Assembly: GCA_048939995.1 (NCBI GenBank)
Contig: JBHLOY010000005.1
Span: forward strand, 155,853 to 218,535
From: Promethearchaeota archaeon
GTDB lineage: Archaea; Asgardarchaeota; Lokiarchaeia; Sigyniarchaeales; SOKP01
Length of the DNA stretch: 62,683 nucleotides
Direction: 5' to 3'
Shown here: in pieces, positions 2,405-32,099 of the stretch
How positions within the stretch are numbered: the first letter of the stretch is position 1
How the letters are laid out: every line of letters begins with the position of its first letter
Position numbers and translations under genes: made by a program
Notes under the pieces: generated by a model
Told to the model about the DNA's origin: nothing
Databases searched by the model: none
The model's input: the letters and a program-made list of their open reading frames with translations, nothing else

Positions 2405-2468
2405 TATTACATTGGTTTTTCTTAGAAATTTATTTCATTTTAGAATAAGATTGCATTAAAGAAGAAAT

Positions 2469-3281: not shown

Positions 3282-3388
3282 TCTCTAAGCCTTTTTTAAG
3301 TCATTTTGAAGTAATATATTATATAATTGAATGGTTATATTAAATTCTTATAAAAAATTATTAATAAAAAAAGGTAGGAAAAAAAATT

Positions 3389-3673
3389 TTATAGTTCTTC
3401 CTCAACCACTAATTCGTCTAGAGTAATATTAACATCTAACTCAGCATTCTGGATTTTTTTAACCACTTTTCGCAATCCATAGTCATTTAATATTAACTCT
3501 ATCAAATTCTTATATAGGCCTTCGATGTTCTCTTTACCCGCCTCCATATATATCTGCTCATCTGGGAGGCAAATATTGAGGATATCATAAAGGCCCTTGA
3601 TTGATTCCTTAATATTTTTGAAGTTCTCTTCGGCCTTCTCGACCATTTCATCCCTAAAATTTGTGTATGCCAT
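3389..3673 (-). CDS. Hypothetical helical protein
   Basis: 94-aa ORF, ATG start preceded by an AGGTGAT Shine-Dalgarno. Confidence 0.75.
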   Translation of the reverse strand: MAYTNFRDEMVEKAEENFKNIKESIKGLYDILNICLPDEQIYMEAGKENIEGLYKNLIELILNDYGLRKVVKKIQNAELDVNITLDELVVEEEL

Positions 3674-13692: not shown

Positions 13693-14376
13693 TTAAGTCT
13701 TTTTAGCAATAGTCAACATAATGATATAGTCTGCTACATCTTCAGCATTATCACTAATCGCTTCAAGTGCTGAAATGGAACTGTGTATTTCTATAGCACT
13801 GAAAGGATTTATATCAGGTGTATTCGAAACTAAGATTCTATTTATCGCAAAACGTAACTCATCACATTCATGTTCAAGTGTGTTTATTTCTTCGCCAAGC
13901 ATTTGAATTTCAGCTTCTTTAGCAGTAAGTAGCTTATTTACCATAGTATTTAATTTTTTAACAGTTTCTACCGATGTCTTTACCATTTCCATTACTTTCG
14001 AATGCACTTGTTCACCTAATTTAAGAAAATCGTTATGATTCATATAGATAAATATTCTAGCACTAGCGTTAGTTGTATTTGCTATATCATCAATTTTATT
14101 TGTGAGATGTATTAAATTTTCATAAACGCTTGAAGCAAGTTCTGCTTTTGAGAGCATATTAAGAATATTACGTCTAATTCCATCAGCTTGGTTTTCTAGT
14201 TCGTTGACACGAAAGAAAACTTTTAAAGCAAGGTCAATATTTTTTTCTTCTATCAAATACGATAATGCTTTATCATATTCAACGACGCATTCAAGTACTT
14301 TTTGCATATGGATTAGTGTTTTATTTATTGCATTCTCTTCATTACGAGATTTAAACCATTCAAATAATGCACTCAT
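13693..14376 (-). CDS. DUF47 / PhoU-like phosphate transport regulator
   Basis: LENQADGIRR..IDDIAN..LEHECDEL..EAISDNAEDVADY repeated E-x3-D motifs. Confidence 0.85.
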   Translation of the reverse strand: MSALFEWFKSRNEENAINKTLIHMQKVLECVVEYDKALSYLIEEKNIDLALKVFFRVNELENQADGIRRNILNMLSKAELASSVYENLIHLTNKIDDIANTTNASARIFIYMNHNDFLKLGEQVHSKVMEMVKTSVETVKKLNTMVNKLLTAKEAEIQMLGEEINTLEHECDELRFAINRILVSNTPDINPFSAIEIHSSISALEAISDNAEDVADYIIMLTIAKKT

Positions 14377-14395
14377 TCCTATTTCCTCCTTTTTT

Positions 14396-15616
14396 TTATT
14401 CTAATTTAAATATTTCATTTATTATATCTTCCCCAGGATGTTTAAAGATGATTCCCAATTCATTTGGAAAATACACAGTAACTTCTGAGTTTTCTAAAAA
14501 CCTTTGGTGGATTTCAGAGGTTGCTGGTATCGTAACAATTATTATTTTTTCTTTACCATTCAATTGAGTTTTAACTTCAAATCTATAAAAAACTCCCATA
14601 AATTTACGTCTTAAGATTTTTCCTAAAATAGCATTACTTTTCTGCTCGACACGATTACCTAATCTTATTTTCATGTGATTTGTTCTAACTAATAGTAATA
14701 TTTTATCCCCCTGTTGAATTTCACTAATTCTATCTTTAGGAATATAACCAATAAAATTTTTCTCTAAACCTATATTCACTGGTACAGCAATTGAATGATC
14801 ATGAATTTGAATTAAAAATTTATCTAAACTTCTTGATTCTTTAATGCTATCATATGAGCTTTCTTCTTTCTTACAAATACCTTCAAAATAATTTAATTCA
14901 CTTAAGAAATTAGCAACAAATAAATTTTTTGGATGATAATATATTTCGTGAGGACTACCAACTTGAATTATTTCCCCCTCATTCATTACTGCAATTCGAT
15001 CAGCAATCATCATAGCCTCTTCTTCCTCATTAGTTACATGAATTACTGTTAATTGTAATAATTCAGATTTTGCCATTAGCAATAACTCCTGTCTTAAATT
15101 CATCCTAAGACCAGCGTCAAGAGCCTTAAGTGGCTCGTCCAAAATAAGTAACTTAGTTTGCTCCAAATTTAAAAGAGCTCTGCATAAAGCAACTCGTTGT
15201 TTCATTCCTCCACTCAATTCCTGAGGTACTGCATCATCTCTTCCTGTAAGAAGAGTCATCATTAAAACTTGATCAACAAGAGTTTTTGTACTAGTTGAAT
15301 CTCTTGCGTTTACACGTCCACTATATGATATATTTTCAACAATATTCATATGAGGGAATAAAGCATAATTTTCAAACATAAAACCTAAATTTCTCTGTCC
15401 AGATGTTTTATTTGTTACGTCCTCTCCATCAAAAAATACTTTTCCAGAGTCGGGTTTTACTAAACCTGCAATAACCTTCAATAATGTTGTTTTACCTGCT
15501 CCTGTTGGACCCAAAATAATAAAATATTCTTTATCATTTATCTCAAGAGATAAGTTTTTAAGTGCTTTAAACTTTCCATAAGACTTTGACACATTATCTA
15601 ATTTAATATGGACCAT
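14396..15616 (-). CDS. ABC transporter ATPase (PotA/CysA-like, TOBE C-terminus) with degenerate Q-loop and H-switch
   Basis: GPTGAGKT, LSGGM, LDEP; FMFENY (Q to E) and HVTNEEE (H to N). Confidence 0.9.
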   Translation of the reverse strand: MVHIKLDNVSKSYGKFKALKNLSLEINDKEYFIILGPTGAGKTTLLKVIAGLVKPDSGKVFFDGEDVTNKTSGQRNLGFMFENYALFPHMNIVENISYSGRVNARDSTSTKTLVDQVLMMTLLTGRDDAVPQELSGGMKQRVALCRALLNLEQTKLLILDEPLKALDAGLRMNLRQELLLMAKSELLQLTVIHVTNEEEEAMMIADRIAVMNEGEIIQVGSPHEIYYHPKNLFVANFLSELNYFEGICKKEESSYDSIKESRSLDKFLIQIHDHSIAVPVNIGLEKNFIGYIPKDRISEIQQGDKILLLVRTNHMKIRLGNRVEQKSNAILGKILRRKFMGVFYRFEVKTQLNGKEKIIIVTIPATSEIHQRFLENSEVTVYFPNELGIIFKHPGEDIINEIFKLE

Positions 15617-15634
15617 TAGTTCACCTATTATTAT

Positions 15635-16789
15635 TTATGTTAAGGATAATTCAAAAAGAAGATTTTTTGGTGCTTTAAATACATGAATATCATCTTTATG
15701 AATTCCAATGATTAAATTTTCACCTGGAGAGAAATTCTCCTCAAAGTTACCTGGCTTGATTGATAAAAAACTATCCCCATTATCCAATCTTAAATAAAAT
15801 CTTTTTGTGGCCCCTATAAATCTTGAATTTTCTAACTTTGCTTCAAAAAACTGGACTTTAGACCAATCATAAGCACTACTTTGAAAATCATAATTTTGGG
15901 GGAATAAATAAACATCCTCGTATCTGAAAGAAATTACTATATTATCATCTAATTTAAATTTATTGCCAAAATTATTACACCTTAATTGTGGACCTCCTAA
16001 GCGAACCCAAAACAACAATTCTTCTTGCTCAAGTGTTTTTAAGACAAATCCTTGAAGAAAGTTGGTCTCACCAAGAAAATTTGCAACAAATATATTGTTA
16101 GGATTTTCATATAGTTCATAAGGAGTTCCCATTTGCAAAATTCTACCTGTTCTCATAATAATTATCTTATCAGCAATCGCCATTGCCTCCTCTTGATTAT
16201 GGGTAACATGAATTGCAGTTAGGCCTAAATCTTTGATCAAATTCCTTAACTCATGGCGAAAAACTTTTGAAACCTTTGGATCAAGAGATCCTAAAGGTTC
16301 ATCCATAATCATTATTTTCGCTCCTGTTGCGATAGCTCTAGCAATTCCTAATTTTTGTAATCCTGGATTGCCAAATACCGAAGGAAATTCATCTGCATAA
16401 TCAAGCAAATCAACGATTTCTAATGATTTTTCTGCTTTTTGAATAATATAATCATCATCATAACCTCGCATCTCCAAACCAAAAGTTACGTTTTCCCAAA
16501 CAGTTAAGTGATCAAAAATTTCAAAGTGTTGAAAGATGAATCCCATATCCCTATCTTCAGGAGGGATTCCATGAACATCTATTCCATCTATTAATACAAT
16601 TCCTTTTGTGGGCTCTTCAAGACCAGCTATCATTCTTAATGTAGTTGTTTTTCCACAACCTGTAGGTCCAATTAAGAAGACATAATCACCATCTTCAATT
16701 TTGAATGATATATTATCTACTGCAAGTACTTTTCCTTCATTAAATGTTTTAGTAACATTAATTAATTCAATATCAGGTAAATTTTTCAC
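15635..16789 (-). CDS. ABC transporter ATPase (PotA/CysA-like) with degenerate signature
   Basis: GPTGCGKT, FQ, MDEP, VTHNQEEA intact; signature reads FGNPG instead of LSGGQ. Confidence 0.9.
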   Translation of the reverse strand: MKNLPDIELINVTKTFNEGKVLAVDNISFKIEDGDYVFLIGPTGCGKTTTLRMIAGLEEPTKGIVLIDGIDVHGIPPEDRDMGFIFQHFEIFDHLTVWENVTFGLEMRGYDDDYIIQKAEKSLEIVDLLDYADEFPSVFGNPGLQKLGIARAIATGAKIMIMDEPLGSLDPKVSKVFRHELRNLIKDLGLTAIHVTHNQEEAMAIADKIIIMRTGRILQMGTPYELYENPNNIFVANFLGETNFLQGFVLKTLEQEELLFWVRLGGPQLRCNNFGNKFKLDDNIVISFRYEDVYLFPQNYDFQSSAYDWSKVQFFEAKLENSRFIGATKRFYLRLDNGDSFLSIKPGNFEENFSPGENLIIGIHKDDIHVFKAPKNLLFELSLT

Positions 16790-18449
16790 CCCTTCTTTTT
16801 CTAACTAGTCTTAACGCAAAGATCAAAAAGGCACTAAATAATATTACTAATATACTAGCAAAAATTGCACTTGGAAAAGCGTTAGCCTCAACCCAATCTA
16901 CAATTAATACAGGTATTGTTCTAATACTTCCCATAACAACAATCGTCGCACCAGTTTCCCCAAGTGATCTAGTAAAAACCATTATACAACCTGCAATGAT
17001 TCCTTGTTTTATATTTGGCATTGTAACTCTTCTAAAGACAGTTAGATTTGATGCTCCTAACGTACGGGCAGCTTCTTCTACACCTTTATTAGCACTTTCT
17101 AAAACCCCGATTATTGGCCTGACCATATATGGAAACGAGAACGACACATGGACAAATAATATCATAAAAAAACCAGGTTGAAAAAGTCCTAATCCAGCAG
17201 GACCCCAGAATAAGAAAATAGCAAAACCCAATGCTGCTGAAGGAATTGCAATAGGAATATCAAGAATTGTATCTAAAAATGTAATCACCTTTCCCCACTT
17301 TCTTTTTGTAATTATAAAAGCAAATGGTAATCCAAAGATGAGATTTATTAATACAGCTAACCCTCCAATTTGGATTGAATTCATAAAACTTGAGTAAAGA
17401 TAAGCCCACTTATAATCTTGCCCAAGAAATAATTCTCCAATTAAGTCACCCTCAAAAACTTGACTGAGAATAAAGAATGAAGGAATAAGGAAAATAGTTA
17501 TTAAGATACTTATCATAATAAAGTCTCTAATATATCGAAAGTATCTGTGACTGAAAAATCGTTCAATCTTGGGCCAGACTCTTTTAACTGGAAAATCGAC
17601 TTTTCTAGTAAAAAACTTGACTGATAAGAGGAGAGTTAATGAAATTAAAATTAAAATCCCTGCGAGGAGTGATGCTGAGGGTAATTCTAACTGTCTGCGA
17701 AAACCAACTATTAAAATTGGAGCAGTCTCTACCAAACCAGACATTATAATTGTAGCTCCAGTTTCTCCAAGACTTCTTGTAAAAGCTAGTATTGCACCCG
17801 CTATAACACCCTCCTTCATCATTGGCAAGGTAATCGTGCGAAAAACAGTAATTCCTGGTGCTCCAAGCGTCCGAGCCGCATCTTCATACAAGACGTCTGC
17901 TTTTTCTAATACTATTTTCATATTTCTAACAATATACGGGAAAGTGAAAACAATATGCCCTAATATGATTAATTCATAACCTGGAGCAACACCAAAAATT
18001 CCCCAAAAAAGCAGAACTGAGAAACCTAACGCGCTAGTAGGTACTGCCATGGGTAAATCAACTAAAGCATCTAGGAATTTCTTCCCTCTGAAGTTATAAC
18101 GAGTTAATATGATCGAAATTGGAAATGCAATCACTATATCAATAGCAACAGCAATTGCTGCTATTGAAAATGAAATTCCAAGGGAATTTAATATATTAAG
18201 CCATTGCAAATTTCCAATTAATTCATCATTAAATACATCATTATTAATTGCTGGTATGTTTAAGAAAATTGTTGAAAAGATGTTAATTATCGGTCCTATA
18301 ATAACTAAAATGAAAAAAATTATTGTTATCGAGTCAAGACTTTTTCTATAAACTGGTTTTGAAAGAAATCGTTCAATCTTCAAACTAAATGGAAGTTTGA
18401 TTTTTTGCTCTTCACAGTTTTCTATAAGAATAGTCTTTTCTTTACTCAA
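16773..18449 (-). CDS. Fused double ABC permease (CysT/CysW/ModB-like halves)
   Basis: Two repeats with D(L/I)P(M/I)A(V/I)P..ALG, EAA loops (EDAARTLGA, EEAARTLGA) and FTRSLGETGAT. Confidence 0.9.
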   Translation of the reverse strand: MSKEKTILIENCEEQKIKLPFSLKIERFLSKPVYRKSLDSITIIFFILVIIGPIINIFSTIFLNIPAINNDVFNDELIGNLQWLNILNSLGISFSIAAIAVAIDIVIAFPISIILTRYNFRGKKFLDALVDLPMAVPTSALGFSVLLFWGIFGVAPGYELIILGHIVFTFPYIVRNMKIVLEKADVLYEDAARTLGAPGITVFRTITLPMMKEGVIAGAILAFTRSLGETGATIIMSGLVETAPILIVGFRRQLELPSASLLAGILILISLTLLLSVKFFTRKVDFPVKRVWPKIERFFSHRYFRYIRDFIMISILITIFLIPSFFILSQVFEGDLIGELFLGQDYKWAYLYSSFMNSIQIGGLAVLINLIFGLPFAFIITKRKWGKVITFLDTILDIPIAIPSAALGFAIFLFWGPAGLGLFQPGFFMILFVHVSFSFPYMVRPIIGVLESANKGVEEAARTLGASNLTVFRRVTMPNIKQGIIAGCIMVFTRSLGETGATIVVMGSIRTIPVLIVDWVEANAFPSAIFASILVILFSAFLIFALRLVRKRRGEKFT

Positions 18450-18475
18450 AATTCTACCATCTCGATAAAGTAAAT

Positions 18476-19600
18476 CTATGCCGTTGCTTTACAAAGTAAC
18501 CACAAATCAGGAATTTCTAACAATACATTTCCATCTAAAGGAGTCTTTAATTCAGGAACATTAATTTCATAAGCAATACCATTAGTTTCATAATTAAATA
18601 CTTCGGGATCAATTGGTATTGAAGGATCAATAGGACGAAAGCCATAAGCCATTGCAGATTCAACAGTTTTAGTTTGATTAAGAAAGTCAAGAAAAGCATC
18701 TGCTACAACTCTTTGTTCTGGGGTAATCCAATCAGCATTTAATATGCAAAAAGGGTGATCACTATATAGGGTCCCTTCCTCGGGGTATATTGCAATAACT
18801 TTACCTCCAACTGAAGTACTGGAAATATCTCTTATTAAATTTTCATAGAGAAAAACAATGTTTAATGCATTTGGTCCTCCCTCCTTCATATATCGTGATA
18901 AAAAACCTGTTGACTTTCCAAACATAACCGCACTTGATTCAAATTCTCTTAACCATTGTTGGTTACCATAATTTGTGAGTTCATTCATCGTCAGATTTTC
19001 TGAGGTTATGCCAGATGCCGCAGAAATAGCCATTATCACACTCATAAAACCTGAATTTGATAAGCGAGGATCAGTATGTGCCATTTTAACATTCACATTA
19101 GGATCCAAATTAAGATTCCGCACATCAGAAAAGCTCTTGATATTATAAGTTGCATTAAAGGCTTCCCAAGTGGCAATAACTACGGGTGAATAAATCAATT
19201 TGACCGCTTCACTAATCTCCACAATTGGAATTACACTTCCAGTGTATTCTGCCCATTTTGTATTTAGAAATGTCATCCATATTGAACTTGCGGGGCTCCA
19301 TATTGTAGGAAATATCTCTCCATTAAGAATACTAATAATAGAATCTGATGATCCATAAGGATGCATATCTATTCTTATCTCTTCCCCTGGATGAGTAGTT
19401 CTCCACTCATTCATGAAATCGGTATAAGCCATTGTCATCCAACTTGCTTTTTCAGAACTATAAATTATAGTGATACGAACTTCGTTTCCAGTACCAATAG
19501 TCACAATATTCGTAAAGATAAACCCTATAATAAACCCTAAAATAAACAGTAGGCTAAATTTAACTTTATCATTTTTCCTTAATTTACGTTTACTTTTCAT
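18476..19600 (-). CDS. Membrane-anchored extracellular solute-binding protein (vWA-associated SBP-like, no vWA domain)
   Basis: N-terminal TM; SSEK, WSPASS.W, SPVVIA, HTDP..SNSG, YPEEGT..DHP, YGFRP motifs. Confidence 0.75.
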   Translation of the reverse strand: MKSKRKLRKNDKVKFSLLFILGFIIGFIFTNIVTIGTGNEVRITIIYSSEKASWMTMAYTDFMNEWRTTHPGEEIRIDMHPYGSSDSIISILNGEIFPTIWSPASSIWMTFLNTKWAEYTGSVIPIVEISEAVKLIYSPVVIATWEAFNATYNIKSFSDVRNLNLDPNVNVKMAHTDPRLSNSGFMSVIMAISAASGITSENLTMNELTNYGNQQWLREFESSAVMFGKSTGFLSRYMKEGGPNALNIVFLYENLIRDISSTSVGGKVIAIYPEEGTLYSDHPFCILNADWITPEQRVVADAFLDFLNQTKTVESAMAYGFRPIDPSIPIDPEVFNYETNGIAYEINVPELKTPLDGNVLLEIPDLWLLCKATA

Positions 19601-19612
19601 AACTTAGAATTT

Positions 19613-19711
19613 CTATATAAATGACTTGATATAATAATCAATAAGAGTAAATAATACCCCTCCAAAAATGCCTATAAGAAGAATCAAGAGATATAAAATT
19701 TTTCTATTCAA
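19613..19711 (-). CDS. Unannotated 32-aa single-TM peptide heading the ABC operon
   Basis: TTG start with AAGGAG SD; MNRKILYLLILLIGIFGGVLFTLIDYYIKSFI; stop 12 bp before the SBP start. Confidence 0.6.
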   Translation of the reverse strand: MNRKILYLLILLIGIFGGVLFTLIDYYIKSFI

Positions 19712-19749
19712 AGAAAAGCTCTCCTTAATAATTTACTTCTAATATTTTC

Positions 19750-19826
19750 TATATATTTAAATAAAAATGAGTAGATTCAATAAACATTCTTATATATTTT
19801 ATATATTTTATATAGTGCTATATAGG
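19750..19826. promoter_or_regulatory. Clustered TATATA repeats in the divergent promoter region
   Basis: TATATATTT-TATATATTT-TATATAGTGC-TATATAGG with 9-10 bp periodicity, plus a copy near 19750. Confidence 0.35.
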
Positions 19827-20022
19827 GTATCAAAACTGGAAAACATTAAAGCTAGGTTATCTAAAGAGAATTTGAAAAATTTAGGTTCCTTGTTCTATTG
19901 TCCAATTAATAATGGATACAAAATATTAACTTATTAATCAAATTTATATGTAAATATATTGTTCTTAAATTAGAAGCAAATTTTTATGATTTAATCCTTG
20001 AGTATTCTATAAAAAATCTAAT

Positions 20023-20697
20023 ATGATTAATATGAATGAAGAAATCGATAATAAAAAGCTTGGAAAAATGAGTATTGATGAATTAACTCATCTTTTTATG
20101 GATACTATACACGAACAGACTTTGAAATTAATTCAAGGAATTGAAAATCTTGTTGATGAAAATTTTGATCAATTCAAAACCAATTTAACTTACGTGATAA
20201 AAACAAATACTGAAGTTTCAATTAAAAAAAAATTTGAATCTAAGATATTTAAATCAAAATTGATGTTTTCAAAAGCAGATCGATTAAAATTATTCAATAA
20301 GATTAACGACATAAAAAATATTGGTGAATTCTTAGCCAACAAATTACTTCTTTATAAGGTTGTTTTTCCTGATGAAGAATTTAAACTTCAAATACAAAAT
20401 ATTCTCAAATCGTTAAGGATAATATCAAATCACATATCAGAAGCAGTTAAATTAATCGGTACTGATTTAAGTAAAGCTCATACTATATGTGAAGATATCA
20501 AAGAAGAGAGACGAACAATGAGAAAAGCAGAATGGCGATTGCTAAATAAACTCTACAACTATGATATGGATTATCTATCAAGAACTTTTCTATATTTGAA
20601 AGAGTTAATTGAAGATATTATGATGTTGGCCGATCACATCAAAAGCTTTTCAGAATACATTCAATTTCTGGCAACAAAATACTTAATTTTTGAATAA
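20023..20697 (+). CDS. Divergent DUF47/PhoU-like protein
   Basis: All-helical; FSKADRLKLFNKINDI and YLKELIEDIMMLADHI match DUF47 halves; first E-x3-D motif eroded. Confidence 0.65.
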   Translation: MINMNEEIDNKKLGKMSIDELTHLFMDTIHEQTLKLIQGIENLVDENFDQFKTNLTYVIKTNTEVSIKKKFESKIFKSKLMFSKADRLKLFNKINDIKNIGEFLANKLLLYKVVFPDEEFKLQIQNILKSLRIISNHISEAVKLIGTDLSKAHTICEDIKEERRTMRKAEWRLLNKLYNYDMDYLSRTFLYLKELIEDIMMLADHIKSFSEYIQFLATKYLIFE

Positions 20698-20715
20698 AAA
20701 CTAAAATGGTTTAGT

Positions 20716-21747
20716 ATGGCTGACAATTTTTCTTTAGTTCTAATTATTATTCTTATTATGTTAGCAGTCGGCTTAGCATTCTCAATCGGAGCAAATGATG
20801 AAACACTTTCAACTTTAGTCGGTGCGGGGGTTATTAAATTTAAATTAGCATTAATAATAGGTGGAGCAGCTATTGGTGGAGGAATGGTTGCATTTAGTTC
20901 TGGATTCGTGGCAAAAACTGTTGGTGCTGATATTTTAGGGGAAGGGATTACTTATACAACATACATGTTGTTAACTGTTATTATAAGCAGTATCATCTGG
21001 TTAGTAGTTGGAAGCTTTGCAGGGATTCCCTTAAGTAGTACACATTCCTTAATAGGGAGTGTAGTAGGAGTCTTAATTGTATACTCAATTTTTCAAGGCG
21101 GGGTTAATCCAGAAACAGCCTTGAACTGGGAAAAATTAGGAAACGTCGTGCTTAGTTGGGTTTTTTCACCATTATTCGGACTTCTAATTACTTATGGATT
21201 ATTTAAAATTTTAGCCAAGACTTATTTGTCCAGGTTAAAAGGGTTAAATCAGATTGAAAAATCAGAAAGATACTTTAAATGGCTTTTGTTATTAAGTGTA
21301 ATATTTGCCGAGATTTGGGTTGGAGCTAATTCAGGGGAAGCTTTAGGGATTCTTTATGGCCTTTTAAATAATGGTTCACTGAACATAGGAGAGTACTACC
21401 TCTTTGCGATAATATGTGGAATATTTTCTTTATTAGGAATATATTTTGCTGCTCGTTATGTTATAAGAAACTTAGCATCTCAAATGACTGATGCTCGTCC
21501 AAGCGAAGGATTGATTACTCAAATAAGCTCTGCAATAATTCTCATGATAGCCACTTTCTTTGGTTTACCTATTTCACATAGTCATGTAATTGTATTTTGT
21601 ATAATTGGAATGAGTTTAGCACAGAAAAAGGAAATCGATTATAAAGCTTTGGGTAAAATGGGTATATACTGGTTTCTAACTTTTCCAATCGCAGCACTCA
21701 TGTCTGGTTTACTTTATTATGGTTTAATCCTTTTTGGTTTATTCTGA
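20716..21747 (+). CDS. Inorganic phosphate transporter (PiT/PHO4 family)
   Basis: GAND, GIPLSSTHSLIG, W..SP, GLPISHSH; second signature reads GANS. Confidence 0.85.
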   Translation: MADNFSLVLIIILIMLAVGLAFSIGANDETLSTLVGAGVIKFKLALIIGGAAIGGGMVAFSSGFVAKTVGADILGEGITYTTYMLLTVIISSIIWLVVGSFAGIPLSSTHSLIGSVVGVLIVYSIFQGGVNPETALNWEKLGNVVLSWVFSPLFGLLITYGLFKILAKTYLSRLKGLNQIEKSERYFKWLLLLSVIFAEIWVGANSGEALGILYGLLNNGSLNIGEYYLFAIICGIFSLLGIYFAARYVIRNLASQMTDARPSEGLITQISSAIILMIATFFGLPISHSHVIVFCIIGMSLAQKKEIDYKALGKMGIYWFLTFPIAALMSGLLYYGLILFGLF

Positions 21748-21810
21748 TAAAATATTTAAGATTTATAGTAATTTATAGTAAATTAAGTAGAAAAAAGTGG
21801 TTGATAAAAA

Positions 21811-22494
21811 ATGGGATCATTAATAGAATATTTGAAACGAGAAACTGCATTAAATGTATTAGAAAAATCAATTAAACATGCTCAAATCGTTCAAAAATGT
21901 ATTAGGGAATTAGATAATGGATTAAATAGTTTACTTACTGAAAAAAACGATGCAAAAACTGTTGAAGCTTTCGATAAGGTTGAATCTTTAGAAGGAGATG
22001 CTGATGACTTGAGAAGGGAGATTCAAAGAGATATATCTAGAGGGGAATTAAATCCTAGCGTAAGACAAAATTTATCTCACTTAATTAAACGAATGGATGA
22101 TGTTGCAAATTGTTGTACTGGAGTCGCTCGTAGAATAACTACGATTCCAATGATATTTTGGGCTCAATCAAACCCTGAAACTATAAGTTTAGTCTTAGAG
22201 ATGATGAAAGCTACTGTTGAATGTAGTGAGTTTTTAGATAAAATAGTTATTGATTTGTTGGAAGAGAGAAAAAACGTAAAAGAATATGCAAAAAAAATTA
22301 ATTTCCATGAACATACTGTGGATATATTGAATATTAAATTAAGAAAAAGCCTGCAAGAAACTCACTATGATGTGAATTTTTTTACTGCATTTACAGCAGG
22401 TAACGTTTTTGATATTCTAGAAGCAATTTCTGATTCAATTGAGGGTGTAGCAGATTATATCATGGTTTTATTAACTAGTGCAGAAAGAATTTAA
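21811..22494 (+). CDS. DUF47 / PhoU-like phosphate transport regulator
   Basis: LEGDADDLRR..MDDVAN..HEHTVD..EAISDSIEGVADY. Confidence 0.85.
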   Translation: MGSLIEYLKRETALNVLEKSIKHAQIVQKCIRELDNGLNSLLTEKNDAKTVEAFDKVESLEGDADDLRREIQRDISRGELNPSVRQNLSHLIKRMDDVANCCTGVARRITTIPMIFWAQSNPETISLVLEMMKATVECSEFLDKIVIDLLEERKNVKEYAKKINFHEHTVDILNIKLRKSLQETHYDVNFFTAFTAGNVFDILEAISDSIEGVADYIMVLLTSAERI

Positions 22495-22510: not shown

Positions 22511-23056
22511 CTAAGAGGCGGATCTTTTAATCACTTTTACTAAGCCTTTTTTCCGTAGCTCTTCCATCATTTTTTCGATCATTTCTATAGATTTCTGAGA
22601 TATTTGGGCAACTTGTTCTAATGTGTTCATGCCATCACAAACTTTTAATACTTTATACTGATCCATAGAAAGCATTCCCAATTGAACACTTAGGGGTGAT
22701 ACCTCCTTAACAATTACAGGAATTCTCACCTCTCCGCCTGCTTCTAGAGTTTCGGCTCCTACTTCCGCCATGCTCGGGGAATCTCCGAAGAATGCGTGAG
22801 CTCCAGTTAAATCAAAGTTATCATTTATATAAACGTATATAGTGTGTTCTCTTACAGAAATGTCGTCAGGATCGTTTGGATCAGGATAAGGATTTCTATG
22901 TTTGTATTCTTTTGTGTAGATTCCCATTTTAAGGCCATCAGTAATTTCTTTTTTATCAATTCTTAAAGCTACCATATCTTCGCAGATATCGCACCAAGCA
23001 TAAGCCTCGATGAGGCTGAAATACTTTCTAACTTTATTCTCTGGTATCGAAATCAC
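22511..23056 (-). CDS. Hypothetical protein with CxxC/His N-domain and C-terminal winged helix
   Basis: WCDIC..H..HT; CDGMNTLEQVA..EELRKKGLV wHTH. Confidence 0.65.
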   Translation of the reverse strand: MISIPENKVRKYFSLIEAYAWCDICEDMVALRIDKKEITDGLKMGIYTKEYKHRNPYPDPNDPDDISVREHTIYVYINDNFDLTGAHAFFGDSPSMAEVGAETLEAGGEVRIPVIVKEVSPLSVQLGMLSMDQYKVLKVCDGMNTLEQVAQISQKSIEMIEKMMEELRKKGLVKVIKRSAS

Positions 23057-24448: not shown

Positions 24449-26251
24449 TTACACTACTCTTTTGAATAACTTATCCAACTCTTTAAAAGATATAAATTTC
24501 AACGTTGGTCTTCCATGAGCACAATGAAAAGGGTCTTTGCAATGAGCTAAATCATTGATAAGTTTTCTGATATTGTGAATAGATAACTCATCTCCCCCAC
24601 GTATACTTTTATGGCAAGCTAAGTAATTAATAATTTGTTCTTTGATCTCAGAAAAAGTCTTATCTTTACCGATTTCTGTTATGTCACTAATTATTTCTTT
24701 TATTACGCCTAAAGCTGGTAATCTATAAAAAATAAAAGGAATTTCTCTTAGAATGAAAGTATTACCCCTAAAATGCTCAAATTTAAACCCTAATTTTGTT
24801 ATTTCATCTAAATTTGATAATAGAAAGAATTTTTCGCTTGGAGCCACCTCTATTTTCAAAGGAGCTACAAGTTTTTGAATTTTTGTTTTTGTTTGTTCAT
24901 AAAATTCGAGGAAAAATTCTTTACTTATTCGTTCGGATGCAGCATGTTGATCTAAAATATAGATACCCGGTTCTCCCTGTTCATTAAATCCTTCAAGTAG
25001 AATATAAATTTTATTACTTAATTGTCCGGTTTTAGAAATCAGTCGAATCTTGGGAAAATTTTTAGCCGCAATAAATCTTTTTCTGGTAAGTGTTTCAGCG
25101 GCATTACCTTCAATTTGATCAAATAAATCCAATTGAATAGATTTCTGTGCTTGTTCTTCTTGTTGATCATCAATATCTGAGTCAACATCTATGTTTGTTT
25201 TTCCTTCATCAATAATAAATTTACTAATTTCAGTTTTTAGGTACTTATCTTGTTTTCTGATGAATTTTTCCTCTACAAAATCTCGAATTACATTATAGAC
25301 CTTGTTATAAATAAAATCTTCATCTTCAAATCTAATATACAGCTTTTTTGGATGAATATTAAAATCCACATTAGCAGGATTTAATTTCAAATTTAGAATG
25401 AAGAAAGGATATTTTCCCACCATCAAAATATCTTTATAAGCTTCTTGGATTGCCCTGAATAATAAGTCACTAATAATATAACGATTATTTATATACAAAC
25501 TTGAATGGGTTCTGCTTTTATTAGCGAGATCGCTATGCCCAAGTAGACCTTGCAATTCAAATTCATTTTCGATGAAATTAATTTGTTCCATACGTTCTGC
25601 AACGCCTTTACCATAAATATGAAATATAGTAGTTTTCAAATCATTTGTTGCTGGACAATTAAGGATGGTTAAGTCATTATGAATATATATGAAATGGAGT
25701 TGAGGAAATGCTAATGAATATCTTTGTACTATATCTGTTATATGACCAAGTTCAGTTGTATCTTTCTTTAAAAACTTTTTTCTTACAGGCACGTTATAGA
25801 ATAGATTCTTTATCTTAATATCCGTACCAATAGGACAAGATATTTGGTTCATTTGATTGATTTTTCCACCATTAATAGTTAATCGATATCCTAAGTCATT
25901 CTCTTTAATTCTAGATACTATTTCGACTTGACTAACAGTAGCTATACTTGCTAAAGCTTCTCCCCTAAACCCTAAAGAATGTAATGTATCTAAATCTTCT
26001 ATTCTTCTTATTTTGCTACTCGTATGTCTATCAAATGCAACTTCAAGTTCCTCTGGAGGTATTCCTATTCCATCATCAATAACATGTATTAAAGTTTTAC
26101 CTGCTTTTTTTATAATAATCCTTATTTCATTAGCTCCAGCATCAATGCTGTTTTCGATTAACTCCTTTACTACATTTGCAGGTCTTTCTACAACCTCCCC
26201 TGCGGCAATTTTTTCAGCGTCTATTATTTTTTGAATCTTTTGTCGTATCAT
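24449..26251 (-). CDS. mutL: DNA mismatch repair endonuclease MutL
   Basis: IAAGEVVERPA, ENSIDA, GFRGEAL, DQHAASE, ACH, CAHGRP. Confidence 0.97.
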   Translation of the reverse strand: MIRQKIQKIIDAEKIAAGEVVERPANVVKELIENSIDAGANEIRIIIKKAGKTLIHVIDDGIGIPPEELEVAFDRHTSSKIRRIEDLDTLHSLGFRGEALASIATVSQVEIVSRIKENDLGYRLTINGGKINQMNQISCPIGTDIKIKNLFYNVPVRKKFLKKDTTELGHITDIVQRYSLAFPQLHFIYIHNDLTILNCPATNDLKTTIFHIYGKGVAERMEQINFIENEFELQGLLGHSDLANKSRTHSSLYINNRYIISDLLFRAIQEAYKDILMVGKYPFFILNLKLNPANVDFNIHPKKLYIRFEDEDFIYNKVYNVIRDFVEEKFIRKQDKYLKTEISKFIIDEGKTNIDVDSDIDDQQEEQAQKSIQLDLFDQIEGNAAETLTRKRFIAAKNFPKIRLISKTGQLSNKIYILLEGFNEQGEPGIYILDQHAASERISKEFFLEFYEQTKTKIQKLVAPLKIEVAPSEKFFLLSNLDEITKLGFKFEHFRGNTFILREIPFIFYRLPALGVIKEIISDITEIGKDKTFSEIKEQIINYLACHKSIRGGDELSIHNIRKLINDLAHCKDPFHCAHGRPTLKFISFKELDKLFKRVV

Positions 26252-26253
26252 TC

Positions 26254-29178
26254 TTAAAATTTATGGTTCAATTTCTCTAATTTTTCTTTAATTTCAATTA
26301 GTATCTTCATCGCTTCTAGAGGTGTTAATGTATTGAGATCAACATCTTTTATAGATTCGATTAAATTTATAAACTCCTCATTAAGCTCAGATGATTTTAC
26401 TGCTATAGGTTTAAATAAGGAAGTTTGAATGTATTTCTTTTTATGTATTGGTTTCGCCTTTTTTTTGATGCTAGTAATCTCAGATTTTAATTTCTCAATT
26501 TCATAGCTTTTTTTACCTAATTCTTGTTCTCTTTCTGAAATTTCTTCCTCACACTTACTCAACTCTTCATGTTTTAATTCTAATTCTAAATTTAACTTCT
26601 CTAATTCTTTCAGTTTTTCCGCTATTAACTTATTATGATATTTTCCAGAACTTTTTTCACTGTTATTCTCTTTAATGGTTGCTCTAAAGGGATCTTTTTG
26701 TTCTATTTGCTCTAAAATTTCAAACGCTCTAATAATAACATCATCAGGGATTCCAGCTAATTTTGCAACGTGAATTCCATATGATTTATCTGTACTCCCT
26801 GGTTTCAACTTTCTTACAAAATTAATACTCCCATCTTCATTTTCAATGATATCAAGATGATAATTTTTGATTCTTGGCAAACTAATTTCTGTTAATTGAT
26901 GATAATGGGTGCTAAAAAGAGTTTTCACCTTTATTTCATGAAGTCTTTGCATAGTGGCCATTGCAATACTCTGTCCATCACTAGTACTTGTTCCTCTTCC
27001 AAGCTCATCTATTATGACAAGACTTTTAGGCGTAGCATAATTCAATATTTTGGCAGTTTCTGTCATTTCAATCATGAAAGTGCTTAACTTTCTTGCTAAA
27101 TCATCTGAAGCTCCAATACGGGTGAAGATTTGATCTATAATCCCAATCGTGGCTGATTTTGCTGGAACAAAACATCCCATTTGGGCGATTATACAAATTA
27201 AAGCAACTTGTCTAAGGAAAGTACTTTTACCTGCCATATTTGGACCGGTTATTACTAGAATTTGATCATTTTCTGTGTCCAAATAGCAATCATTTGGTAT
27301 AAACTTCTCAGAAATATTAATTTGCTCAACTACTGGATGTCTTCCACCCTTAATTGTTATTTTATCTTCTTGATTAATAATAGGACGGCAATAATTATAT
27401 TGCTCTGCGATCTCTGCAAAACACGCGATTACATCTATAAATGCAATATTTTTTGCAGTTTCTAAAATATCTAATGTATGTTGTAATACTTTCTCTCTAA
27501 TTGTAGTATAAATCTCATATTCTAAATTATTTATTTGTTCCTCTGCTTCTAATATTTTTTCTTCAAGTTCCTTCAATTTTGCGGTTGTAAACCGTTTAGC
27601 ATTCTTAAGAGTCTGTCTTTCAATATACTCCTCTGGCAACTTCGGAATTGTCTTTAAAGTGTTTAAGGTGATTTGAATATAATATCCAAGAATATTATTA
27701 TGACCAACTTTAAATCCAGAATTTATTCTCCATTTTGATTTTTGTTCATTTTCATAATCAAGAAGATAATTTTTCCCATTATGTAGAAGATCTCTTAATT
27801 GATCTATTCTACTATCAAAACCATTTTTAATGAGATTTCCTTCTTTTATAGTTATTGGAGGGTCTTCTTTTATAGAAGTCTCAATTAAACTCCTGAGCTC
27901 CCTAAAATCATCAATTTTCGTTAGAAAATTGGAAATCTCTGGAATTTTAGATTTTTCTAATAGAATTTTTACTTTGGGAATTTTTTCTAATGAATTTTTA
28001 ATATTGATTAAATCTCGTGCGTTTGAACTCCTGGAATAATTAACTTTGTTAATATATCTTTCAAGATCACCAATAACTTTTAATTCTTCTCTTAATTCTG
28101 ATCTTAAAAATACATCATCTTTGAACTTCTGGACTATATTAAGTCGATGATTTATTTCATCAATATTAGTAAGAGGTTGAAGAATTATCTTCTTTAATAA
28201 ACGAGCACCCATTGGTGTATGTGTATGATTAAAAATCGAATATAATGTAGTGTCTCTACCTTTTTCCCATAGGGAAGTAATTAGTTCCAAATTTCTTTGA
28301 GTAATATAATCCAAATGCAAAATCATTTTTTCTTGGATTAAACTTATTTTGAAAATATTGGGTAAAATATCTCTCTGAGTATCTTTTAAAAAAGCTAGAA
28401 GGCCCCCAGCTGCTTGGATCACTAGTTTTTTATTTTCTAAACCAAATCCTTGAAGATTTGATATTTTAAAATGTCGTGTAATTAAGGAATAAGCTTCTTC
28501 ATATTCAAAAACATAATCATCATAGGGCTTAATTAGTGCATCATTCAAATCAGTTAAAAGTAGAAATAATTGTTCTTCTTTTTTAAGTTCTGTAGGAAAG
28601 ATAACTTCAACAGGATCATATTGGGAAAAAATACTAAGAATTTTTTCTAATGAGTCTTTATGGTTAGTGACAAACTCGGAAGCTACAAACTCCCCTGTAG
28701 AAAGATCTGCAAAAGCGATTCCAAAACCTTCTTTACGTTTTATTATAGAGCAAATATAATTATTTTCAGTTGACTTTAACATATCAGATTCTATTATTGT
28801 TCCCGGTGATAATATTCGTACGACTCCCCTTTTAACGATTCTTCCTTTCACTGTAGAAGGATCTTCTAGCTGATCAACGACTATAACAGTCTGTCCCATA
28901 TTTACTAGATTTTTTATATAACTCCCAGCATGATATGGAATTCCTGCAAGAGGATAGGAGTCATCACCTATTTTTCGTTTAGTTAACGTAATTCCTAAAA
29001 GTCTAGATACTTTCTCGGCATCATCATAAAAGAATTCGTAAAAATCTCCCATTCTATAAGCTAAAACATGATCTGGATATTTTTCTTTGTACTTATTCTT
29101 AACACTAAACCAATGTTTCATCATTGGTGTTAAATCTTTAAGATTAAGTTCTTCTATTGAAGTTTTATCCTTCATCAT
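26254..29178 (-). CDS. mutS: DNA mismatch repair protein MutS
   Basis: GDFYEFF, TGPNMAGKST, DELGRGT, STHYH; extra C-terminal coiled coil. Confidence 0.97.
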   Translation of the reverse strand: MMKDKTSIEELNLKDLTPMMKHWFSVKNKYKEKYPDHVLAYRMGDFYEFFYDDAEKVSRLLGITLTKRKIGDDSYPLAGIPYHAGSYIKNLVNMGQTVIVVDQLEDPSTVKGRIVKRGVVRILSPGTIIESDMLKSTENNYICSIIKRKEGFGIAFADLSTGEFVASEFVTNHKDSLEKILSIFSQYDPVEVIFPTELKKEEQLFLLLTDLNDALIKPYDDYVFEYEEAYSLITRHFKISNLQGFGLENKKLVIQAAGGLLAFLKDTQRDILPNIFKISLIQEKMILHLDYITQRNLELITSLWEKGRDTTLYSIFNHTHTPMGARLLKKIILQPLTNIDEINHRLNIVQKFKDDVFLRSELREELKVIGDLERYINKVNYSRSSNARDLINIKNSLEKIPKVKILLEKSKIPEISNFLTKIDDFRELRSLIETSIKEDPPITIKEGNLIKNGFDSRIDQLRDLLHNGKNYLLDYENEQKSKWRINSGFKVGHNNILGYYIQITLNTLKTIPKLPEEYIERQTLKNAKRFTTAKLKELEEKILEAEEQINNLEYEIYTTIREKVLQHTLDILETAKNIAFIDVIACFAEIAEQYNYCRPIINQEDKITIKGGRHPVVEQINISEKFIPNDCYLDTENDQILVITGPNMAGKSTFLRQVALICIIAQMGCFVPAKSATIGIIDQIFTRIGASDDLARKLSTFMIEMTETAKILNYATPKSLVIIDELGRGTSTSDGQSIAMATMQRLHEIKVKTLFSTHYHQLTEISLPRIKNYHLDIIENEDGSINFVRKLKPGSTDKSYGIHVAKLAGIPDDVIIRAFEILEQIEQKDPFRATIKENNSEKSSGKYHNKLIAEKLKELEKLNLELELKHEELSKCEEEISEREQELGKKSYEIEKLKSEITSIKKKAKPIHKKKYIQTSLFKPIAVKSSELNEEFINLIESIKDVDLNTLTPLEAMKILIEIKEKLEKLNHKF

Positions 29179-29306
29179 AAGAAAAAATTCAATTCTCAGA
29201 AATAAATATTATAACTCTATTAATTTTCACTTGAAATTTATAATTTTTATTATAAATTTAATAATAGCAAAAAAAAATAGCTTAGATACCCTCTGAGTGA
29301 GGGATT

Positions 29307-32099
29307 TTAGATATGTAGTATTTTCTTTTCTAAAGTCAGATCATAAGCTTCTTTCATAGCCTCTTCATAGATATCAATCTTGAACTTATTATGAAATGGA
29401 CTAATTTTGCTGCCTAATTTAGCAATTTTACTTAAGGTTTTTGGAAAGAATCTGATAACTGGGGCGGTGACCAATAATGCTGCTCTTTCAAACTCCTGCA
29501 AAGTGTTATCATCATAACCACCAAAAAAGCCATCTAAGAAAGAATAGAAGAATATGAATACAAAAATCCCTAATAGGAATATAATTGCAGTATTGAGGAT
29601 CTTATCTCCCAATGGAATTGACCAAATTAATTCTCCAACAAAGTACAATACTACAAAATTGATAAAAGCCGAAAGGGCTGGGGTAAGGAATGTCTTAAAG
29701 GGATAAATCTTGTATTTAATTATTTTCTTCCTAACTATAATCCAGGCAATCAAGTCTTTAAGTAAAACTGCAGGGATATAAGCTATAATCACATAGACCA
29801 TATCTCTCAAAAATACCACTAATACATACATCAACAATGCTCTACTAGCTTGTTCAATAATCCATACTACCATTGCATACCCAGTATGCCCAGTACCTTG
29901 GAATACAGAATCAACTAACCAGGAATAAATACCTCCAGCGTGAAAAAGTAACAGTGGAATTAAAAATTTGACCGCAGGAGCACCATACTCTTCACCAGCA
30001 GCACCTATTAAAAATTTTTCCCCTGTGGCAAATAGAACCGATATTAAGAAAAATGCAAAGTAATTCCCCCATCGAAAAGCTTGATAAATATATAGTTTAG
30101 TTAATGTATGTTTATTATGAGAGCTTGATTCACTATAAGCTCCTAGAAGTGTATTCGAATAAAGAGTAACTATTTGAACTATCATTCCTAGAGTCCATGT
30201 TAGATTAAACCATCCTAAATTATTGGAATAATTTGCTACAAATATAGATGTAATGATTACTTGTATAAACCAACCTATTTGCACGAAACCTTCTCCAATC
30301 CCTAATTTTGATCCATAACTTAATGATTCTTTCACTTCTTTTCTAGAGAAATCGATTCTAAAACATGTCTTAGCTGAAAAACCTTGTTTTTTAAACATTA
30401 AAATTGAAATAATAAAAGTCATCCAAAAATCAAAGCAGCGCGCAATTGCATAACCTATCCCTGCACCTAATGCTTCACCAAAAACAGGGTTAGCAGCACC
30501 CCATATACGCCCAAGATAACAAAAAATCACTTGACCTATCAATAGAAACACAATTTCCCAGAATATATAGAGAATTAAATAGAAATCTGAACGCTGCATT
30601 CCCTGAAAAGTATACATGAATACTAAGAAAACACCAGGGTATTGAACAAATGAATATATTATGAAAATCCAGCTCATATGAGCAAGGTTAGTATAGGGAA
30701 AAATGAATGATCCAATAAAAGCTATGATTGATATTTGAATGATGCCCGTAAAAATTTGCCACCATACATAAATTTGAATATAATGTATTGATTTTTCAGG
30801 GTTTTTTACTCTGTATTGGGCGAAGAATTTCGCCAAAGCAAAACTAGTTCCAAAGTCGAATAAGATCCAGATTATTTGAAAGAAATTGTAGGCATAATTA
30901 TACCAACCAGCAGCTTGTGGATAGGGTTGTATAATTTGAGGCATGATAAAGTTAGAGATCAATAATTGGGGTAATACTAGAATTAAACCTATAAAAAGAG
31001 TAAAAAGAAAACCTCCCAACTGGCGATGAACACCTATAACTTCCCATTCATCTTTTAAATCTACATGTTCCTCTACCTTTTTTTCTAAAATTTTGGCTTC
31101 CTCCAACTTTTTCTTCTCTTCTTCTTCAGCCTGAAGCTTTATAAGTTCAATTGTTTCTTGGTTCATTGCTGTTCTTGATTTTCGTTTAACTACAAGAAAT
31201 AACGCAATAGCTAATATTGCAAGAACCAAGATAATGATCCCAATTATGGTTTGCTCTAAAAAGTGAGGAACCGGTGAATAAGGCCAAGCTGCATATGTTT
31301 GGAACGATAGATTTAGACTATTATATATTAAAGCGTATAAAAGATAATTGAAGTAAGGCCATACTTTAAAATCTAAGTTAGCGTTTTTTTCTAACCAACC
31401 AGTGAACAAGACAACAGTTCCACTCCCTTTTAAGGTTTCAATAATAAGTGGTTGGCGATTGGCATCAATTTGTAAATTTTTTGAAATAGGATAAGCATCA
31501 ATAACTCTTTTTATTGAGGGTAAAAACAATTCCTGTCCGTTCTCTCTAATTAATAATGTCATATTTTTAACTTTCATATCAGGAGCAGAATTCCAATCAA
31601 TGTTGTTGCTAATTGGATGCGATGCATTATTAACGATACATAACATAGATTCTTGATTTGTTTCTTTATAGCTTTCGAATAACGAATTATTGATTAAATC
31701 TAATTCAGCTAAAAAAGTAGCATTATCATATAAATTTTGTCCTGTAAAAATCAAAGCACCACCTCCCCCAAACTCCACAAAATCTGAAATAACTTGCTGC
31801 TCTGAGCTATTTAAGAGAGCATCAAATACTACGACAGCATCAATCCATGATCCAATTGCAATCAATGGTTCAGGATCAGATATAATTGAAATATTAAAAT
31901 CTGCTTGATCAATCCCCAGACTTTGAAGAAATAACTCATCATTTCCCTTACTTATCACTAAAACATTTCTACTAATACTTGGCTGCGCAAATGCTGGTCT
32001 TATTAATAAGAATACAGCAATGTTAGTTGCAACTAATGTAATCAAACCTATAGTTAGTATTTTTGATACTTTTTTTTTTGTAATAGCCATAAATATCAA
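29307..32099 (-). CDS. MOP-superfamily (Wzx/MurJ-like) flippase fused to an N-terminal extracytoplasmic domain
   Basis: N-terminal TM, ~250-aa soluble alpha/beta domain, TM, charged linker, then ~14 TMs with FDFGTSFALAKF and FQG motifs. Confidence 0.6.
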   Translation of the reverse strand: MIFMAITKKKVSKILTIGLITLVATNIAVFLLIRPAFAQPSISRNVLVISKGNDELFLQSLGIDQADFNISIISDPEPLIAIGSWIDAVVVFDALLNSSEQQVISDFVEFGGGGALIFTGQNLYDNATFLAELDLINNSLFESYKETNQESMLCIVNNASHPISNNIDWNSAPDMKVKNMTLLIRENGQELFLPSIKRVIDAYPISKNLQIDANRQPLIIETLKGSGTVVLFTGWLEKNANLDFKVWPYFNYLLYALIYNSLNLSFQTYAAWPYSPVPHFLEQTIIGIIILVLAILAIALFLVVKRKSRTAMNQETIELIKLQAEEEEKKKLEEAKILEKKVEEHVDLKDEWEVIGVHRQLGGFLFTLFIGLILVLPQLLISNFIMPQIIQPYPQAAGWYNYAYNFFQIIWILFDFGTSFALAKFFAQYRVKNPEKSIHYIQIYVWWQIFTGIIQISIIAFIGSFIFPYTNLAHMSWIFIIYSFVQYPGVFLVFMYTFQGMQRSDFYLILYIFWEIVFLLIGQVIFCYLGRIWGAANPVFGEALGAGIGYAIARCFDFWMTFIISILMFKKQGFSAKTCFRIDFSRKEVKESLSYGSKLGIGEGFVQIGWFIQVIITSIFVANYSNNLGWFNLTWTLGMIVQIVTLYSNTLLGAYSESSSHNKHTLTKLYIYQAFRWGNYFAFFLISVLFATGEKFLIGAAGEEYGAPAVKFLIPLLLFHAGGIYSWLVDSVFQGTGHTGYAMVVWIIEQASRALLMYVLVVFLRDMVYVIIAYIPAVLLKDLIAWIIVRKKIIKYKIYPFKTFLTPALSAFINFVVLYFVGELIWSIPLGDKILNTAIIFLLGIFVFIFFYSFLDGFFGGYDDNTLQEFERAALLVTAPVIRFFPKTLSKIAKLGSKISPFHNKFKIDIYEEAMKEAYDLTLEKKILHI

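Follow-up and report, generated by a model that had tools for sequence, protein, structure and literature searches.

DUF47 proteins are known as partners of PiT, a carrier of inorganic phosphate (Pi). PhnCDE and PhoCDET act as Pi importers and so provide a precedent for Pi uptake by ATP-binding cassette (ABC) transporters other than Pst (PMC6469041), and the bacterial PHO box consists of direct repeats with 11-bp units (PMC4415409). Here we describe an ABC importer locus with DUF47 and PiT genes from a Promethearchaeota archaeon (assembly GCA_048939995.1; Lokiarchaeia-type genome G000, 3.75 Mb, 98% complete). It lies in a 62,683-nucleotide stretch of contig JBHLOY010000005.1 (positions 155,853 to 218,535), hereafter the window. 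Our analysis suggests that its left operon encodes a type I ABC importer from the sulfate/molybdate/tungstate lineage that was recruited to phosphorus, most likely to Pi; we hold this to be somewhat better than an even bet, and a function in phosphorus acquisition as such to be quite probable. No published description of the ABC system, of its promoter box or of the proposed regulator was found in the literature searched, which left most subscription papers out of reach.

The nine genes are arranged in two divergent, tightly packed operons, as an earlier reading of the sequence alone (the sequence-only reading) had described, and all were confirmed as open reading frames (ORFs) by ORF calling and by Pfam and NCBIfam scans (Table 1). 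Leftward, the order is a membrane microprotein of 32 amino acids (aa), the solute-binding protein (SBP), a fused permease, ATPase A, ATPase B and a DUF47 protein ('a'), with intergenic gaps of -17 to 26 bp. Rightward, a DUF47-like protein, PiT and a further DUF47 protein ('c') follow with gaps of 18 and 63 bp. The parts of a type I ABC importer are complete: an SBP, a BPD_transp_1 permease, and a pair of nucleotide-binding domains with at least one complete ATP site.

The linkage between the ABC genes and DUF47 was assessed in 80 related loci with full flanks, drawn from Asgard, Bathyarchaeia and Thermoprotei. A DUF47 gene was found within 1 kb of the ABC genes in 72 of these, so that the linkage proposed in the sequence-only reading held up, and either a DUF47 gene or an AbrB-PhoU regulator was present in 74. 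The DUF47 gene was placed downstream, upstream, divergently, convergently or inside the operon (at least five positions or orientations); the link has therefore survived repeated rearrangement. At least five Asgard families have the left operon, and six related genomes carry all eight large genes in one direction; for these reasons the arrangement is not due to chance. The conserved core is the SBP, the fused permease, one or two ATPases and one DUF47 protein, and the PiT unit is an add-on. PiT lay within 3 kb in only 12 of the 80 loci, mainly in the family of G000, and we therefore rejected PiT plus three DUF47 proteins, put forward earlier as the system itself, as the core architecture; it is a family variant. 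The SBP was present in 57 of 201 Asgard genomes (one more weak match was discarded) and in 13 of 111 Bathyarchaeia-class genomes, and it also occurs in Thermoprotei. Some loci depart from this layout. Those of the Jordarchaeia-like family f8 (L081-L083, L155) combine the SBP with two separate permease halves and have no adjacent ATPase or DUF47 gene, a similar ATPase being encoded some 7-8 kb away on the other strand. At L046:9311-12001 (G181), SBP and permease share one 896-aa frame that lacks a promoter box and is either a natural fusion or an assembly error.

Loci of family f1, the family of G000, carry tandem CTATATAG-like units with a 10-bp period upstream of the microprotein. This box was modelled as a 28-bp matrix trained on the promoters of this ABC system alone. 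When left out of the training, 18 of 19 ABC promoters exceeded the 99th percentile of the scores of intergenic regions in G000, and with G000 itself left out, the region between its divergent operons (19798-19825) ranked 1 of 1142. The independent pstS promoters of related genomes scored at least 7 bits in 13 of 14 cases, versus 0 of 39 control promoters from the same family, and 10 of the 14 beat their own dinucleotide shuffles (p<0.05). AbrB-PhoU promoters scored 8-26, the promoters of the tungstate ABC system (tup) and of sat in G000 scored below 0, and the box was absent from phosphodiesterase (PF01663) promoters. Being independent of gene adjacency, the shared box is, in our view, the strongest pointer to phosphorus. 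It backs the phosphate link of the sequence-only reading from an independent side; the phosphate importer interpretation as a whole is supported in part. The AbrB-PhoU protein encoded on contig C13 of G000 (2427-3434) is the likely binder of the box. We also note a protein of about 200 aa without Pfam match that recurs beside pst, phosphodiesterase and ABC operons (G000 C11:293586-294179; L050:2593-3213; L047:2645-3271; L052:2550-3152). The region upstream of its gene in G000 ranks 6th of 1142 for the box, making it a candidate member of the regulon.

The ABC parts are not those of Pst, in agreement with the earlier claim. Among NCBIfam models the permease scored 237 bits for the sulfate permease, 219 for ModB and 205 for WtpB, compared with 74 for PstC and 63 for PstA. 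PstC and PstA were both far below their cut-offs (196 and 193, respectively), and the cut-offs of the sulfate permease (TIGR00969, 240), CysT (195 versus 246), CysW (171 versus 329) and WtpB (340) were not reached either; that of ModB (TIGR02141, 182.6) was passed with the two halves summed. The best Protein Data Bank (PDB) match was A. fulgidus ModB (2onk, E=4e-19), with PstC at only 4e-4. This ranking fits the description of the permease halves as CysT/CysW/ModB-like. With 384 and 406 aa the ATPases are not of the short PstB type, and PstB was outside their top 25 families. They are PotA/PhnT2/WtpC/CysA-like, with the best score on PhnT2, which fits the PotA/CysA likeness noted before; the TOBE tails noted with it were found above cut-off (TOBE_2) in ATPase A and weakly in ATPase B. 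In the ATPase tree all versions, single or paired, group together and are separate from CysA, ModC and PstB (support 98), and the asymmetric A and B types are each monophyletic; this tree and that of the DUF47 proteins are quick trees without bootstrap.

The SBP matched PF13531 only. It had no NCBIfam match, and so is a member of neither the Sbp/CysP nor the ModA/WtpA family, and no match to the PstS type PF12849. Profile alignment with hhalign revealed remote homology to E. coli Sbp (E=4e-5, probability 69%, 252 columns), followed by ModA (E=1e-3, probability 17.5%) and E. coli PstS (E=0.17, probability 0.4); sequence searches of the SBP against PDB gave nothing. Its AlphaFold model (predicted local distance difference test, pLDDT, 74) had the fold of a cluster-D binding protein. 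Foldseek returned Sbp as the top match, and PstS was outside the top 50 fold matches, which does not exclude PstS. The closest characterised relative of the SBP is the sulfate-binding protein Sbp.

In the alignment with Sbp, residues S84, S181 and Y252 fall at S45, S130 and W192, which are Sbp ligand positions, and E50, K51, N182 and S183 fall at D11, P12, G131 and G132 (mature numbering of Sbp). Among 124 ABC-linked SBPs, S49, E50, K51, H175, S181, N182, S230, T231, Y252, E253 and H282 were invariant, and the same cleft residues were mostly retained in 79 long fusion proteins. The extra acceptors and the lysine in the cleft would suit protonated phosphate better than sulfate, by the selectivity rule known for Sbp and PstS; they would suit a phosphoester too. 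The SBP belongs to a family that is usually fused to vWA domains, and its nearest non-archaeal relatives are SBP-vWA and kinase fusions. Bacterial-type relatives (L098, L213-L217) occur as tandem pairs, as vWA fusions or beside Ser/Thr kinases, with the cleft residues kept. No cognate permease was present in the six bacterial-type contexts read, and a TelA/XpaC context of bacterial SBP-vWA relatives was not seen in the loci read.

An ABC ATP site is formed by the Walker motifs of one subunit and the signature of the other. ATPase A has intact Walker A and B motifs, Q-loop and His, and a degenerate signature (FGNPG). ATPase B has an intact signature, and its Q-loop Gln is replaced by Glu and its switch His by Asn. 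The same division was seen in 41 of the 43 Asgard loci with two ATPases. There, A combines a degenerate signature with preserved Walker A and B motifs, Q-loop and His. In B the signature is preserved and the Q-loop lacks its Gln; a further loss affects the His, the catalytic Glu or the Lys of Walker A, according to lineage. The pair should therefore have one consensus and one degenerate ATP site, the consensus site being predicted to combine the Walker motifs of A with the signature of B. Full-length versions with one ATPase have canonical motifs, and two-ATPase versions of other kinds are intermediate, which provides a natural gradation, within a type I importer, from the homodimeric to the asymmetric state. 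Among importers, a degenerate site has a precedent in RbsA, the fused ribose ATPase of another clade.

DUF47 'a' and 'c' (13693-14376 and 21811-22494) both pass the PF01865 cut-off. In 'a', the acidic residues E61, D65, E168, D172, E205 and D209 are invariant. DUF47 'c' is 34% identical to 'a', shares a clade with it (support 95), and probably arose in Lokiarchaeia by duplication of the ABC-linked type. The divergent protein (20023-20697) is 14% identical to the other two, has lost the first acidic motif and matches TIGR00153 below cut-off (E=1e-12); in the tree it groups with PiT-associated DUF47 proteins, on long branches. PiT has kept the Asp of the first signature and has Ser in the second, where T. 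maritima PiT (6l85) has Asp. All PiTs of this locus type share the Ser, and the protein may be altered in coupling or may be regulatory. Homologues of the microprotein were found at the same position in every Lokiarchaeia locus with upstream DNA, and none were detected in other classes. Heimdallarchaeia-type SBPs (L060-L070, L076-L079; families f5 and f14) have an extra C-terminal hydrophobic helix and no detected upstream microprotein; we would guess that this helix is the counterpart of the microprotein. Four points go beyond the sequence-only reading: the asymmetry of the two ATPases, the box between the operons, the change in the PiT signature and the occurrence of the system outside Asgard.

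We propose that the anchored SBP would bind a tetrahedral phosphorus oxyanion at an Sbp-like site formed by helix N-termini, with additional polar side chains from S49, E50, K51, S181, N182, S230, T231, Y252 and E253, and would pass it to the fused permease. The A/B heterodimer would hydrolyse ATP at one site only, and DUF47 'a' would serve as a PhoU-like brake or sensor. The repeat box would control both divergent operons within a phosphate regulon, to which pstSCAB would belong in genomes that have it, and PiT with the two further DUF47 genes would be a module added in the family of G000. A fuller version, in which the system is a separately evolved ABC route for Pi with a one-site heterodimer braked directly by DUF47 and an AbrB-PhoU switch at the 10-bp repeat operator, is tentative, and we consider it less likely than not to hold in all its parts. 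A co-fold of DUF47 'a' with ATPases A and B scored 0.46, compared with 0.52 for a control in which ATPase B had been exchanged; we count this neither for nor against contact between them.

The relation to pstSCAB was a further element of the sequence-only reading, which asked whether carriers lack it. For G000 this was found: no PstC was above cut-off, there was no match for PstS, PstC, PstA, PstB, NptA or PhnD, and the sole PstS-type protein is TupA-like. In the close relatives G072, G097 and G124, pstS directly follows a gene of about 710 aa and a small GTPase gene; in G000 these two genes are present mid-contig with no pst behind them, and the absence therefore looks true. Across carriers this did not hold, as pstC co-occurred in 23 of 57 Asgard (40%) and 4 of 13 Bathyarchaeia genomes. 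Strict replacement of pstSCAB was ruled out by this co-occurrence; the negative association seen overall tracks lineage and disappears when family f1 is taken alone, in which there was no exclusion (11/21 vs 8/25). The pst operon adjoins the ABC operon in G187, G148, L182 and G282, and in L185 an AbrB-PhoU gene faces the SBP gene where its relative L182 has pstSCAB in between.

Several of these observations weigh against Pi as the substrate or against a phosphate function. Co-occurrence with pstSCAB fits a different phosphorus substrate equally well. The closest characterised relatives of SBP and permease are sulfate/molybdate proteins, and with VIA-align the SBP model matched sulfate, thiamine, glucose-6-phosphate and phosphonate binders in a tie (Z 19.7-21.2). 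S183, at the position of a PstS-like hydroxyl, is Gly in 48 of the 124 SBPs. PhoU-fold or DUF47 genes also stand beside VIT1 and MgtE metal-transporter genes in G000, and DUF47 alone is therefore no proof of phosphate. The promoter-box tests were restricted to family f1, three loci of the sister family f2 are without the box, and the genomes compared are related and do not represent independent samples.

The alternative that survives best keeps the same phosphate regulon and assigns the SBP a phosphoester (sugar phosphate, glycerophosphate or nucleotide) or reduced phosphorus (phosphite or phosphonate) as a ligand that complements Pst. We regard it as unlikely, although clearly more credible than the two that follow. 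It would account for the frequent co-occurrence and adjacency of pstSCAB, for the glucose-6-phosphate and aminoethylphosphonate binders among the tied top folds (6lkg, 8x1a, 4r6y), for the additional invariant polar residues H175, E253 and H282 and for the PhnT2 score of the ATPases; in one genus, moreover, a phosphodiesterase gene (PF01663) is located upstream. However, the known DUF47 partner carries Pi, G000 had no match for PhnJ or PhnD, the box is missing from the phosphodiesterase promoters, and sulfation clusters contain PF01663 genes as well.

It is improbable that the system is still an importer of sulfate or thiosulfate (or of molybdate or tungstate) that stands among phosphate genes for some other reason. 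Sbp is the best match of the SBP by profile and by Foldseek, its ligand positions correspond to S84, S181 and Y252, the ModB cut-off is exceeded by the permease, and G000 has sat. This gene is on another contig in a glycan-sulfation cluster, which indicates that a demand for sulfate exists. The cluster (L211; G000 C2, a 16.5-kb contig) comprises sat, CysC-like, sulfotransferase, PF01663 and glycosyltransferase-like genes. Against this alternative, no sulfur-assimilation or molybdenum cofactor (Moco) genes were recognised among the partly annotated neighbours of the loci read, and sat was not found in 32 of 73 carriers, including 100%-complete and single-contig genomes (CysD/N were not searched). 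The box is common to pstS and not to sat or tup, and a separate Tup-like ABC system in the Moco cluster of G000 covers tungstate. No more probable is a complex whose main role is to sense phosphate (or which handles phosphate complexed with a metal), its half-dead ATPases and altered PiT reporting phosphorus status to the DUF47 proteins with little transport: the conserved degenerate ATP site, the missing Asp in PiT and the bacterial SBP relatives tied to vWA domains and Ser/Thr kinases without permeases would fit, but one fully consensus ATP site is left, single-ATPase versions are wholly canonical, G000 would keep only its second, divergent PiT for Pi uptake, and one-site transporters are common among ABC exporters, for which degenerate sites have mainly been described (PMC3971661).

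If a recruitment to Pi is correct, it would explain phosphorus scavenging in many Asgard and Bathyarchaeia genomes without pstSCAB and correct the annotation as sulfate/molybdate transporter in these genomes. It would be a natural case of a sulfate-type site switched to phosphate, with a bearing on selectivity between the two, and would give DUF47 proteins, which are poorly understood, a second class of transporter as partner. It would also supply an operator and a regulator of phosphate control in archaea that can be put to the test. Should the more tentative fuller version hold, it would point to an Asgard phosphate regulon without PhoR/PhoB and to a ligand class for the large SBP-vWA family.

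Other genes in G000 and in the window touch on these subjects. A second, divergent DUF47-pit pair without promoter box is found at L094:7795-9462 (C7), a DUF47-like gene lies between a V/A-ATPase operon and two divergent VIT1-like genes at L095:9149-9802 (C3), and MgtE-domain genes are followed by a PhoU/TrkA-C fusion protein at L210:4780-7167 (C6). In the window, a 181-aa protein with a C-terminal winged-helix-like domain (22511-23056, minus strand) is convergent on the pit operon and kept in the genus. Further on (24449-32099, both strands) there is a gene that is MutL-like by the look of its translation, then ORFs of 974 and 930 aa. A sigma-70 promoter and terminator scan, a method unsuited to archaea, gave results at chance level.

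Table 1. Features of the locus, with positions in the window.
Feature	Position	Strand	Evidence
DUF47/PhoU_div 'a', core partner of ABC importer; acidic PhoU-type motifs kept	13693..14376	-	PF01865 E=3e-21
ATPase B, signature intact, own ATP site degenerate	14396..15616	-	motif table (43 two-ATPase Asgard loci); clade of 15 rows, support 98
ATPase A, degenerate signature, TOBE tail	15635..16789	-	motif table; clade of 15 rows, support 99
Type I importer permease with two fused halves, CysT/CysW/ModB/WtpB lineage, 558 aa	16773..18449	-	two BPD_transp_1 stretches; NCBIfam ranking
Membrane-anchored cluster-D SBP, 374 aa	18476..19600	-	PF13531; hhalign; fold searches
Single-helix membrane microprotein, 32 aa, first gene of left operon	19613..19711	-	ORF and Lokiarchaeia homologues
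Repeat box, about three CTATATAG-like units, 10-bp period, between divergent operons; candidate phosphate-regulon operator	19798..19825	.	matrix scan
Divergent DUF47-like protein	20023..20697	+	TIGR00153 E=1e-12; no Pfam match
PiT-family transporter	20716..21747	+	PHO4 (PF01384) E=8e-50, 170 bits vs cut-off 33.7
DUF47 'c'	21811..22494	+	PF01865 E=1e-25

By comparison with described systems, the ABC system appears to work like Pst-PhoU yet is no member of Pst, and judged by its SBP it is neither CysPTWA nor ModABC. Like PstSCAB-PhoU (PhoT family), it is a type I ABC importer that depends on an SBP and has a partner of PhoU fold; the two share a promoter element and are often adjacent in these archaea. 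It differs in that none of its SBP, permease and ATPases is orthologous to a Pst component, in having DUF47 and not PhoU as partner, and in the asymmetric heterodimer of its TOBE-tailed ATPases. Sbp/CysP-CysTWA provides the nearest SBP profile and fold and CysT/W-like permease halves; unlike it, the present system is below the family cut-offs, its SBP has only about 13-18% identity and additional side chains in the cleft, the permease is fused, there are two ATPases, and the context is phosphate instead of sulfur. ModABC/WtpABC resembles it in the permease (above the ModB cut-off with halves summed, AfModB the best PDB match) and the TOBE-tailed ATPase, whereas the 374-aa SBP is not ModA/WtpA, there is no Moco context, and the genome has a separate Tup system. 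PhnCDE/PhoCDET belongs to another lineage with a PhnD-type SBP, for which G000 has no match. The right operon has the layout of DUF47-pit (orfA/pap-pit) operons, except that two DUF47 genes flank PiT, whose second signature lacks the Asp; moreover, DUF47 is here mostly found with the ABC importer and no PiT. Bacterial SBP_bac_11-vWA proteins share the binding-domain family and the conserved cleft residues, whereas the SBP described here has no vWA domain and is tied to a permease and ATPases. Finally, the archaeal box is reminiscent of the direct repeats of the bacterial PHO box, from which it differs in sequence and in its period of 10 bp.

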